The notes under the pieces: generated by a model
The model's input: the letters and a program-made list of their open reading frames with translations, nothing else
What the model was told of the DNA's origin: nothing
Database searches by the model: none
Shown here: positions 13,127 through 20,371 of the stretch, in pieces
Layout: each line of letters opens with the position of its first letter
How positions within the stretch are numbered: position 1 is the first letter of the stretch
Program-made: the position numbers and the translations under genes
Source of the DNA: Escherichia phage naam
DNA: 64,000 nt
Sequence record: MN850630.1
Direction: 5' to 3' (one strand)

Positions 13127-15904
13127 ATGAGCATGTGGTCGTTCGATTTTGAGTCATCCGGTTTGCTGGAAGACCCAGATCTTTATTATCACTGCGGCCT
13201 GTTTAAAGAGCTGAATAAGAACCGTTTTATGCTGTTCCTTCCTCTGAATGACCGCACACACTACTCCGAGGAGGATATAGAGAAGGCCAAGAACTTTATT
13301 CTGGCAAAGAAAACTCTTTATAAGGATTTTGAAGTTCGCATAGCAGATTTTTCGGAGTTGGAAGGTTGGCTTACAGGAAATTCCGACTGGTCACCAACAG
13401 CTTTGAACTGCCATAACTGCTACAGTTATGACTTTATGCTGATGGAGAGATTATCCGGTATTCATTTTGATATGTTCCGTGATCCTAAATGTATGGGGAC
13501 TATCAACGACCACCAGGTTAACCTGTTTGATACGTTGGCGATGAGCCGAATCTTGTGGCCTGATCGCCCTTTACCAAAAGGTTGTCCGGACTCCGTATTC
13601 AACCCGGTTACTAAGAAAATGCAGCCTGTTGGTCCTCACGGCCTTATGGCATGGGGCTACGCCCTTGGTAACCAGAAAGTTCAAATTGATGACTGGCGCG
13701 ATCTTCCGTTGTGGAAGTATGTGGATCGTGTATTCGAGGACGTTATCATCCAGGAGCTACTCTGGAAAGAGCTGGTAGCGGAATCAAAAGGTGTATTCTA
13801 CGGCAAATCTGACATGCAGAACTTTATGTACGATCCTGCCAAAGAGAAGCCGAAAGGGTTCAAGAAGATCACCTGGAAGAACGCATTGCGCCGGGGTATG
13901 CTGCAACACTTCCTGATGGAGCTGCAGGCCCGTCAGGGTGTGTATTTTGACATAGATGGGGCTATTGCTTTACGTGACCGTTGCGATGCTTGGATGAAAG
14001 AAATCGCTGATCGTGTTGAACCACAACTACCTTTAAAAGAGCTGTCAATGTCTCAGCGGCCCAAGTTCCCTGAAAAGCCGTTTAACCAAGATGGGACAAT
14101 CTCCAATAATGGTTGGAAATGGTTAAAAGATAAGCTTGGCTATCCTGTGGACATGAGTGCTTTAGAGTTCAAGGCCCCGCCTAAGCGAGCATTTACCTCT
14201 ACAGGAGATGTCAGTAAGATGGGGATAAAATGGTGTGAAGAGATGGGCTGCAAAGACCCAGATAAGATGGCTGATTTCTTGAGAGGCTATATTAAGGGCA
14301 CCTCCACACCACAACCTTTGCCTAAAGAGCTAATGGATCAGGCAATAAGTGATCTACAGCAGAAGCGAATGCCGGACTGCAAGATACCTATGAAAATCAG
14401 CAACCAGGACGACATTAAGCGATACCTGATCAGTGCTGGTTGGCTTCCGACAATGTGGAGAACTAAGGATGTAACTAAAGACAGCAAGAAGAAAGCTCTA
14501 CCTGATGCAGATGTTGATGCACGAGTATATGCATATATGGACGAGCTTTTAGAGTCAGAGTATTGTGACCTGATTATCAACTTCTGGAACAAAACTGATG
14601 CTAAGTTCCAGACAACCGTGCACAAGTTCCGAAGCTTTCCTAACTCCGAAAGGATTAAAAAGGAAGTATTCGGGAAAATACGTAGAAAAGCTAGGGCACT
14701 TATTACTTCTCCGCAACTGAAAGATACTTTTGGACACCTATGTCCAAATCTTGAAAAATTGAACGGAGAGATGGCTAAAGATATCGTCTTGTGGTTATCA
14801 TTGCGAAACCGCAGATCGGTCCTTGATCCAATCAAGGAGGATAAGGTTGATACTGGTCTTCTTAATCACCCACGTTTGAAGATTGACCATAAGCTTCCTG
14901 CTAAAAGCTCTGGATTAACAAACACTTCCCGACAGAAACACAGTATTTGTGCAAACATGCCTAAACCATCTCCTAAAGTGGTTATGGGTAAAGAGATGCG
15001 TAGTCTGTGGGGTGTTCCTCCAGGATACTTTGAGATCGGTATTGACGGGTCCAACTTAGAGCAGCTTATCGGGGCTTGGGGTGCCTTTGAGTTCGACAAC
15101 GGCTTGTATTATGATGTTGTAAGTAACGGAGACGCACACCAAAACAACGCCGAGGCATATACAAAAGTAGCAGGCAGAGAGGTATCTCGTAACGACGGTA
15201 AACCTATCACGTATGGGGTTATGTACGGGGCACAAAAAGACAAAGTTGCAGACATGCTGGATATCTCCCCAGAGTTGGGACAAAGGGTAATTGATGCACT
15301 TTGGGATGCCAACCCTGGTCTTAAGGGGCGTAAAGAAGATCTGGAGAAATTCTGGGAAGCAACGGGTAAGAAGTTTATCTACTCTTTTGATGGTCATGCT
15401 ATCTGGACCCGATCTAAACACTCTTTACTTAATGCATACCAACAGAATGGTGGTGCATCGTTGTGTGACTTAGTTGGGATACTCATGCACCACCAAATGG
15501 TGAAGCGTGGGTGGTACGATGAAGGTGTTCGTCGTATTATTTATTACCATGACGAATATCAGCTTCAAGTCCCTGACACACCTAAGTATAAGACTGTGTA
15601 CACCTTCGACACAATTGAAGAACTGGAAGCATTTAAGGCAGAGCAGGAGTCCAAACTTCATGTGTTCGACGGTCATAAGTACAAAAAGGCACGCAAGGAT
15701 GAGGACGGAAACGAAGTGGTTGACAGAGACGGAAACACGGTGTACGATCCTATCCTGAACGATGACGGAAAGCTTGAACTTATCTGGAGCCCTGTGGGTG
15801 AAATGGTGGTGCATTGCTTCTGGCAAGCTTCTAAAATGATGGGCGTCCCGTTTCAGATCACAGGTGAATACCTGTGTGGTCGTAATTGGGGTGATTGTCA
15901 CTAA
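13127..15904 (+). CDS. DNA polymerase, family A, with probable 3'-5' exonuclease domain
   Basis: Exo I-like FDFESSG at the N-terminus; Pol A motif B RNDGKPITYGVMYGAQ; motif C YYHDEYQ; 925 aa. Confidence 0.9.
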   Translation: MSMWSFDFESSGLLEDPDLYYHCGLFKELNKNRFMLFLPLNDRTHYSEEDIEKAKNFILAKKTLYKDFEVRIADFSELEGWLTGNSDWSPTALNCHNCYSYDFMLMERLSGIHFDMFRDPKCMGTINDHQVNLFDTLAMSRILWPDRPLPKGCPDSVFNPVTKKMQPVGPHGLMAWGYALGNQKVQIDDWRDLPLWKYVDRVFEDVIIQELLWKELVAESKGVFYGKSDMQNFMYDPAKEKPKGFKKITWKNALRRGMLQHFLMELQARQGVYFDIDGAIALRDRCDAWMKEIADRVEPQLPLKELSMSQRPKFPEKPFNQDGTISNNGWKWLKDKLGYPVDMSALEFKAPPKRAFTSTGDVSKMGIKWCEEMGCKDPDKMADFLRGYIKGTSTPQPLPKELMDQAISDLQQKRMPDCKIPMKISNQDDIKRYLISAGWLPTMWRTKDVTKDSKKKALPDADVDARVYAYMDELLESEYCDLIINFWNKTDAKFQTTVHKFRSFPNSERIKKEVFGKIRRKARALITSPQLKDTFGHLCPNLEKLNGEMAKDIVLWLSLRNRRSVLDPIKEDKVDTGLLNHPRLKIDHKLPAKSSGLTNTSRQKHSICANMPKPSPKVVMGKEMRSLWGVPPGYFEIGIDGSNLEQLIGAWGAFEFDNGLYYDVVSNGDAHQNNAEAYTKVAGREVSRNDGKPITYGVMYGAQKDKVADMLDISPELGQRVIDALWDANPGLKGRKEDLEKFWEATGKKFIYSFDGHAIWTRSKHSLLNAYQQNGGASLCDLVGILMHHQMVKRGWYDEGVRRIIYYHDEYQLQVPDTPKYKTVYTFDTIEELEAFKAEQESKLHVFDGHKYKKARKDEDGNEVVDRDGNTVYDPILNDDGKLELIWSPVGEMVVHCFWQASKMMGVPFQITGEYLCGRNWGDCH

Positions 15905-18717: not shown

Positions 18718-19083
18718 ATGGAACAAATGAACGATCAAGCGTCGGTTGCGATGAACGAGCAAGAACAACCTCAAGAATTTTTCTTAGGGTTAAGTAAAGA
18801 TCAAGTGTCTCTTCTGCTAGTGCTTTCTTCTTTCATGGGAAGACTTCAGGAGCTTACACAACAGCCAGAGGCTGAACAATTATTCCAGGCTCTGCGTGAA
18901 GAAGAAAAATATCGTCGTTTGGACTATGCCTTAGGTTGGGTAGCTCAACAACGGGATATGCTGATGGCCCTCTCTGGGACCACAAGTTTTGCAATGGGCC
19001 TGCTGGCTCAAGTTCAGGACAAATTAATTCAAGCAGGGTTTGCACACACGGCAAACACTAACGAAGAACAAGGAGACAAATAA
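18718..19083 (+). CDS. hypothetical protein
   Basis: CGGAGA RBS; 121 aa. Confidence 0.55.
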   Translation: MEQMNDQASVAMNEQEQPQEFFLGLSKDQVSLLLVLSSFMGRLQELTQQPEAEQLFQALREEEKYRRLDYALGWVAQQRDMLMALSGTTSFAMGLLAQVQDKLIQAGFAHTANTNEEQGDK

Positions 19084-20309
19084 TGAGCGTTATCCAACAA
19101 TTCGCTAACCCGATGAATCCGCGTGAAACTGTTTTACTGGCTCACGGCATGATTAAACGTGTCAGCATCAAGCCTATCAAAGGTGCTGATCCTACAACAG
19201 GTATTAAAACCACTGTGTGGCAAGGTAAGAAAATTGAATCCAGCCACACCATCTCTTTACTGATTTCTGAACTGGATTCCTCTGATAACCTGCTTCAAGG
19301 TGGTGAAGAAGTCTGGATCAGCATGGGTGATAAACTGCTTAAACCGGGTCATCAAGACTCTGTCTCTGTTAAGATTGATGACAAGTGGGAAACCGTAACG
19401 CCAGGATGGATCGTAAATATCCCTTTGAAGGCAAACGAGCATAACGGTAAGACCTATTACAAAGGCTCACTGGCTAAGATGGTTAAGCTGGGTGCAGGAG
19501 AGGCTCCAGCAGCGGCTCAGCAGCAAAAACAGCAACAAGGTGCACAATCACAAGGCCAGAAGCAGAAACCTCAGCAGAATGCCAATCAGGACGTTTTACG
19601 CATCTATGGTGATGTGACTCAGATTGTTGGCAACGTGGTTACTGTTAATGACCACAAGATTGGCGAAGGTGCTATGGTTGTCACTGATGAGCAGCTTAAA
19701 GACCTGGTGGTAGGTGGTCGTGTTGCAGCCATTGTTGACAAAGACACCGGAAACATTATCAGTGGTTTCAAGGCCTATCCTCCTAAGGCAGAGAACGGCA
19801 CTCAAGGCTCTGGTGGCAAGCGTAAATCCTCTTACGACCCTATCGGTGTGGAGACGGGACATAGCATCAATGCGTTGCAGATCATCCTGGATCGCGGGTT
19901 TAAGGTGGACGACCCACTAGGCGTGGCTAAAACACTGCACGTAGTCACCATTGAGCTTAAGAAAGAGTATGCTCAAGCCACCAACCGAACTGAAGATGAA
20001 GTAGGTGCCAGTGTCGGCAATGCGGTGTTGAACGCTTGTCGCCGTATTGACAAGAAAACGAAAGTTGATGATTTTGCAGCGGCAATTACTGCAGAAGCAA
20101 AAGATGTCTTGACTAATCTGGCTGAGCCGTTGTACGATTGGATCAAGAACGGTGCTGGGTCCACTGACCATCAAGAACCTCAAGCTGCCAAACAGGAAGC
20201 AGCTCCACAGCAAAACACTGTAGACGCTCCTCCTGTAAATGACGAGGAAGATGACCCGATGGATCAGAATCCAGCACAGTACGCCTTTGATGATGACATC
20301 CCATTCTAA
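19083..20309 (+). CDS. single-stranded DNA-binding protein-like, with host-SSB-type C-terminal tail
   Basis: Last six residues DDDIPF match the E. coli SSB tip; Gln-rich linker QQQKQQQGAQSQGQKQKPQQ; acidic C-terminus; 408 aa. Confidence 0.6.
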   Translation: MSVIQQFANPMNPRETVLLAHGMIKRVSIKPIKGADPTTGIKTTVWQGKKIESSHTISLLISELDSSDNLLQGGEEVWISMGDKLLKPGHQDSVSVKIDDKWETVTPGWIVNIPLKANEHNGKTYYKGSLAKMVKLGAGEAPAAAQQQKQQQGAQSQGQKQKPQQNANQDVLRIYGDVTQIVGNVVTVNDHKIGEGAMVVTDEQLKDLVVGGRVAAIVDKDTGNIISGFKAYPPKAENGTQGSGGKRKSSYDPIGVETGHSINALQIILDRGFKVDDPLGVAKTLHVVTIELKKEYAQATNRTEDEVGASVGNAVLNACRRIDKKTKVDDFAAAITAEAKDVLTNLAEPLYDWIKNGAGSTDHQEPQAAKQEAAPQQNTVDAPPVNDEEDDPMDQNPAQYAFDDDIPF

Positions 20310-20324
20310 CATCTAGTTAACATA

Positions 20325-20353
20325 GCCCTGCCCGAAAGGGTGGGGCATTTTTG
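20325..20353 (+). terminator. rho-independent terminator
   Basis: Same hairpin as at 10191 (gccctgccc gaaa gggtggggc) followed by ATTTTTG. Confidence 0.7.
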
Positions 20354-20371
20354 TATAAGGAGATCTGAAAA

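Follow-up and report, generated by a model that had tools for sequence, protein, structure and literature searches.

A putative replicative SSB of rV5-like phages with two predicted OB folds, a four-helix domain and the C-terminal tip of E. coli SSB

Overview

Our analysis indicates that the gene at positions 19083..20309 (+ strand) of the window, by which we mean the whole stretch of 64,000 nucleotides analyzed here, likely encodes the phage's own replicative SSB, a member of the large PHROG 4477 family for which we propose a mechanism of five steps. Predicted fold, family, genomic context and literature all support the SSB-like identity suggested in a preliminary description of this DNA. For a protein 99% identical to this one, such an identity has already been predicted, together with genetic evidence; as the central idea already stands in a 2026 preprint, what we present is a confirmation with family context and no discovery.

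The gene, its signals and its C-terminal tip

The ORF opens with an ATG, encodes 408 residues plus a stop codon and has a Shine-Dalgarno sequence, AAGGAG (19070..19075, +), 7 nt 5' of its start. The start codon shares an ATGA with the stop of the upstream ORF (18718-19083), an overlap consistent with translational coupling. The product of this upstream ORF (121 residues) belongs to PHROG 7310, a family with no assigned function whose ORF is not kept beside SSB-like family members in other phage groups. We considered it as a conserved coupled partner and rejected this, since it has no similarity to the corresponding upstream gene of phage ESCO5 and the two fall into different PHROGs, neither with an assigned function. 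On the 3' side of the SSB-like gene, a GC-rich hairpin (GCCCTGCCC-GAAA-GGGTGGGGC, 20325-20346) with a T-run (together 20325..20356, +) is terminator-like and may end the transcription unit.

The protein ends in ...NPAQYAFDDDIPF, followed by TAA at 20307-20309, and its last six residues, DDDIPF (20289..20306, +; directly 5' of the stop), are identical to the SSB-Ct hexapeptide of E. coli, as the preliminary description had it. Translated in all six frames, the 64-kb window yields a single DDDIPF, right before this stop codon, and the tip is kept in relatives with as little as 29% identity; given this conservation, and a chance of ~20^-6 = 1.6e-8 per ORF for a specified terminal hexapeptide (our own arithmetic), the match is not a chance one. 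Ahead of the tip lies a disordered acidic tail (residues 358-402; 20154..20288, +; pLDDT < 50) that is rich in Q, P, A, E and D (14% Q), and the last 51 residues (358-408), from whose end the peptide PAQYAFDDDIPF is taken, carry a net charge of -12. Residues 358-408 combine a disordered linker with an acidic DDDIPF tip bearing a free carboxylate, as in SSB-type proteins, and a salt bridge to the terminal Phe carboxylate is common to the SSB-Ct pockets of DnaG, ExoI, RecO, chi and PriA. The same description had placed a Gln-rich linker together with the acidic tail before the tip; the acidic tail is there, but the Gln-rich stretch is not beside the tip, as the segment with 41% Q comprises residues 139-170, between the first two domains.

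Predicted domain architecture

An AlphaFold2 model based on 33 homologs has three confident domains with disordered segments between them, and its pLDDT falls below 50 over residues 140-169, 237-250 and 363-408. The first is an all-beta, basic OB fold (OB1, residues 1-138; 19083..19496, +; pI 9.1) which is structurally similar to the SSB OB domain and whose best structural neighbors are SSBs. Its family-conserved aromatic positions, H55, W78, W102 and Y125/Y126 (65–92%), would be the base-stacking residues expected of an SSB, and we propose OB1 as the main ssDNA-binding domain. The Gln-rich disordered linker (residues 139-170; 19497..19592, +; pLDDT < 50) leads to a second OB fold (OB2, residues ~171-235; 19593..19787, +), a minimal, slightly acidic barrel of five strands in the order strand-strand-strand-short helix-strand-strand, the helix lying between strands 3 and 4. 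After a further segment with pLDDT < 50 (residues 237-250) come the four long helices of the third domain (residues ~252-357; 19836..20153, +), the best-conserved part of the family. Conserved here are D252, G255, G259, H260, N263, K283, H286, T289, K293, G308, G312 and A318, among which D252, G259-H260, H286 and G312 are near-invariant; its Asp/His/His set may build an interface or bind a metal. No relative of this four-helix domain was detected in Pfam or the PDB. It contains both sites at which substitutions allow escape from the DRT10 defense (see below), D252 (19836-19838) and Y351 (20133-20135). The suggestion that a protein about twice the usual SSB length should hold extra domains, and that an OB fold should be sought in its N-terminal region, was thus borne out by the model, which yields two OB folds (residues 1-138 and 171-235) and the four-helix domain.

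The PHROG 4477 family

The full-length protein (residues 1-408) matches PHROG 4477, listed as of 'unknown function', over positions 1-393 of the 393 in the profile (E = 1.1e-173). Other searches gave little: there was no match for the whole protein in Pfam, nor in the PDB by sequence with either the whole protein or an OB1 profile; TIGR00621 scored 11.5 bits (cut-off 53.95), with the match confined to the tail (residues 331-408) and the OB domain left out; and a BFVD fold search returned only 'uncharacterized' family members and weak SSB-like matches. We found neither an OB fold or sequence family of the gp2.5 type nor a zinc-binding (His/Cys3) OB core of the gp32 type in the protein.

A tblastn search identified 115 phage records with ≥95% identity, all rV5-like (Vequintavirus; some carry Campylobacter phage labels), and a further 213 records with <60% identity from Klebsiella, Salmonella, Cronobacter, Pectobacterium, Erwinia and other phages. 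The orthologs include rV5 gp209 (ORF 214), Bas55_0086 and Bas52_0087, and in nearly all records the gene is annotated as encoding a 'hypothetical protein'. A profile search of 1.84 billion representatives (E up to 1e-3) extended the family to at least 260 clusters, which come in a long form (~350–430 residues) with OB1, linker, OB2 and helical domain, and a short form (~260–300 residues) with OB1 and helical domain only. Among 188 near-full-length representatives, xP[F/W] is the ending of 153, IPF of 99 and DDDIPF of 44, with a mean of 4.5 acidic residues in the nine positions before the ending; some family members end instead in ...DGLDF, ...DVF or ...VAF. Homologs P0040-P0043, compared with the P0007 type, have a divergent OB1 (~45% identity), and their linker and OB2 are almost identical to those of another lineage, a domain mosaicism that suggests recombination at domain boundaries.

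Genomic context

In the window, as in rV5 and Bas55, the SSB-like gene lies ~3 kb downstream of genes for a gp4-like primase-helicase and a family-A DNA polymerase, and in ESCO5 the family gene follows the DNA polymerase I gene at a distance of ~1.7 kb that is taken up by five small genes. Two distant metagenomic members have the order primase/helicase, PolA, small ORFs, SSB-like gene and PHROG 107 exonuclease, which, judged by gene order, is that of a T7-like replication module. In one distant member the gene directly upstream (locus L006, 9837-10001), whose stop overlaps the start of the SSB-like gene, has a match to Pfam Phage_T7_Gp5_9, a family of RecBCD inhibitors, and underlines the T7-like layout. 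As to the polymerase itself, it is a single 925-residue ORF in the window (13127-15904) and in Bas55; in the rV5 RefSeq record (locus L001, 5871-8822) it is split into gp223 (775 residues) and gp220 with small ORFs between them, which could reflect a frameshift, an insertion or an annotation artifact.

Searches for another SSB in these phages were negative. The rV5 RefSeq record has none annotated at 4-82 kb or at 110-135 kb, and the rV5 genome paper lists no SSB among the replication proteins; none appears among the 25 of 40 Pfam families listed for 85 ORFs of the window; and phmmer with the E. coli SSB as query found no match in six-frame segments of the window or in the rV5 loci.

Comparison with known SSBs

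Like bacterial SSB (E. coli; PF00436/TIGR00621), the protein has an N-terminal OB fold and a disordered low-complexity linker, and its acidic tail closes with the same DDDIPF. However, its OB domain has no match to that family at the sequence level, the chain has about double the length and includes a second OB fold as well as a four-helix domain set apart from it, and we infer that its mode of oligomerization is probably different. T7 gp2.5 likewise has an OB fold and an acidic tail with a terminal Phe (essential in gp2.5), and works in a replisome with a family-A polymerase and a gp4-type primase-helicase, within a comparable gene neighborhood. There are two OB folds per chain in Thermus/Deinococcus SSB, and a comparison with these and with RPA is also invited; in the window protein, however, the OB folds are unequal (138 versus ~65 residues) and parted by a 32-residue Gln-rich linker, with a helical domain following, and sequence homology to Thermus/Deinococcus SSB or RPA was not detectable.

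Closer to hand, the short members in Phapecoctavirus, such as ESCO5 gp225, which is annotated 'SSB', belong to PHROG 4477 (E = 4e-97) and have OB1, the helical domain and a PPMDFDDDIPF tail, but are 295 residues long and lack OB2 and the Gln-rich linker. The matches of ESCO5-type proteins to SSB models span the last ~45 residues only, and this tail-only match probably gave rise to the 'SSB' label that some of the Phapecoctavirus proteins carry.

Bas52_0087 and escape from DRT10

A near-identical relative is Bas52_0087 of phage RudolfGeigy (Bas52), which is identical to the window protein at 405 of 408 residues, differing only by A145T, A369T and A401S, and which has the same length, locus, neighbors and FDDDIPF end. 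A recent preprint (bioRxiv 10.64898/2026.04.29.721553; 30 April 2026) describes the isolation of Bas52 mutants that escape DRT10, a system of a UG17 reverse transcriptase and a SLATT protein; both escape mutants had one substitution in Bas52_0087, D252V or Y351C. Its authors predicted two OB folds and a disordered C-terminus with a C-tip in Bas52_0087, which they called 'SSB-like', assigned both escape positions to a 'putative oligomerization interface', and proposed that it competes with SbcB/ExoI; overexpression of SbcB weakens DRT10 defense. They also report that expression of Bas52_0087 alone is neither toxic nor enough to trigger DRT10; triggering in infection was demonstrated genetically for Bas52 only. 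The window protein likewise has D252 and Y351 at the two escape sites, and D252 is among the most conserved residues of PHROG 4477. As Bas52_0087 is 405/408 identical and occupies the same locus, the reading of the preliminary description coincides with this published prediction. Literature on DARNA and retron Eco2 was set aside, since it concerns another matter than the SSB-like protein.

Proposed function and alternatives

The fold and domain layout are results of the prediction tools; DNA binding, oligomerization and partner binding we infer. In the mechanism that we propose, the basic OB1 would hold ssDNA by its conserved aromatics, as bacterial SSB does, and OB2, in the long forms only, would give an accessory contact to DNA or protein. 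The four-helix domain may provide self-association or cooperativity in place of the bacterial OB-OB tetramer interface. In the free protein the acidic tail would rival DNA for the OB fold, and would be freed once the protein binds ssDNA. The freed DDDIPF-COOH could then dock into host ExoI/SbcB, Pol III chi, PriA, RecQ, RecO and DnaG at their SSB-Ct pockets, and/or meet basic patches of the T7-like polymerase and primase-helicase that the phage encodes, so that tip clients would be drawn to phage replication forks and away from host SSB; DRT10 appears to sense the resulting upset of host ssDNA metabolism. The harmlessness of expression alone and a tip that is not always free are evidence against this main reading.

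Three alternatives were considered, each of them compatible with a replicative SSB and not exclusive of it. The protein could chiefly be a decoy or hijacker of host SSB-interacting proteins (e.g., ExoI, RecQ and PriA), with its OB folds a mere scaffold and the phage dependent on host SSB for replication. Such a role would fit a tip identical to that of host SSB, the proposed competition with SbcB and the weakening of DRT10 defense by SbcB overexpression, and the better conservation of helical domain and tip than of the OB fold; yet the gene's conserved place among T7-like replication genes and the absence of another SSB from the phage suit a replicative role better, expression alone does no harm to the cell, OB1 is basic with conserved aromatic positions, and viable phages carry capped-tip variants, and we regard a decoy as quite unlikely. 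The tail and terminal Phe might instead act chiefly on the phage polymerase and primase-helicase, as in T7 gp2.5, and identity with the host tip would then be incidental or tolerated. The T7 SSB tail and Phe232 bind T7 polymerase and helicase, enzymes of these types are encoded near the gene, and the ...DGLDF, ...DVF and ...VAF ends of some family members recall gp2.5-type tails. Against this, exact [DE][DE]D[ILV]PF tips predominate in the family, and the genetics implicate SbcB, which is known to be an SSB-Ct client, and so favor host partners; we consider a mainly phage-directed tail unlikely, if not strongly so.

A protein with OB folds need not be an SSB, and a recombination mediator, annealing protein or helicase loader (PriB-, RecO- or DnaT-like) could use such a tip on SSB-coated DNA machinery. 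To our knowledge, however, known SSB-Ct-binding proteins do not themselves carry an SSB-Ct, and IDL-like linkers with an acidic tail and tip are the hallmark layout of SSBs; as no separate SSB was found in the phage either, we rate this account as very improbable.

A replicative SSB of this kind would matter beyond the window. Vequintaviruses and their kin are common phages of E. coli, Klebsiella and Salmonella, used in therapy cocktails, and their SSB is still 'hypothetical' in almost all of 328 phage records. If PHROG 4477 were recognized as a class of SSBs with a host-mimicking tip, at least 260 protein clusters could be better annotated, and the triggering of SSB- or ssDNA-sensing defenses such as DRT10 would be explained. 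Natural variants with free and capped tips offer a tractable system for phage entry into the host SSB interactome.

Capped tips and HNH insertions

In 19 of the 188 representatives (~10%), including rV5 gp209 and Bas49_0089 (...DFCDDIPFAPVGLQYGKSRIHAL*) of the BASEL phage EmilHeitz (Bas49), the protein runs 13–16 residues past IPF. This cap peptide (APVGLQYGKSRIHAL; consensus [AS]P[VI]GLQY[GA]xxx[IV][HY]x[LM]) is encoded at 13225-13272 in rV5 (locus L001), 151-198 in L013, 7171-7218 in L010 and 7183-7230 in L012; it is absent from the equivalent site of the window, 20306/20307. As a C-terminal addition it would mask the carboxylate of the terminal Phe. The window protein has a free tip and no HNH gene, as in Bas52 and Bas55; in 52 phage records a gene for an HNH homing endonuclease follows the SSB-like gene directly (e.g., 13244-13867 in L001 and 343-921 in L009), and the corresponding site in the window (20307-20371) is empty. 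We considered the 15-residue rV5 extension as a by-product of HNH insertion and rejected this, as the same peptide occurs with no downstream HNH gene in L010 and L012. Read in the SSB-like frame, most codon differences between cap lineages leave the residue unchanged (Leu TTG/CTA, Gln CAA/CAG, Arg AGA/CGG, Tyr TAT/TAC); in the overlapping HNH frame they are non-conservative. Because the cap occurs without HNH and its differences are largely synonymous in the SSB-like frame, it is a selected peptide, one that the codon comparisons show to be under purifying selection. We speculate, and offer this as a possible but rather doubtful extension, that PHROG 4477 is a distinct, structurally unclassified class of phage SSBs defined by the four-helix domain, with selected free and capped states of the tip, the cap regulating or hiding the tip, e.g., from defenses that sense tip-dependent ssDNA disturbance.

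The HNH insertions show two different 5' junctions, and in the second type (PMBT16) the stop codon is kept after a tip of ...EFDDSIPF. We also considered a group I intron as the carrier of the HNH gene and rejected it, as the 624-nt HNH ORF nearly fills the ~646-nt insert. Tip-coding DNA that adjoins an HNH gene bears substitutions (DFCDDIPF, DDSIPF), possibly a form of target-site immunity.
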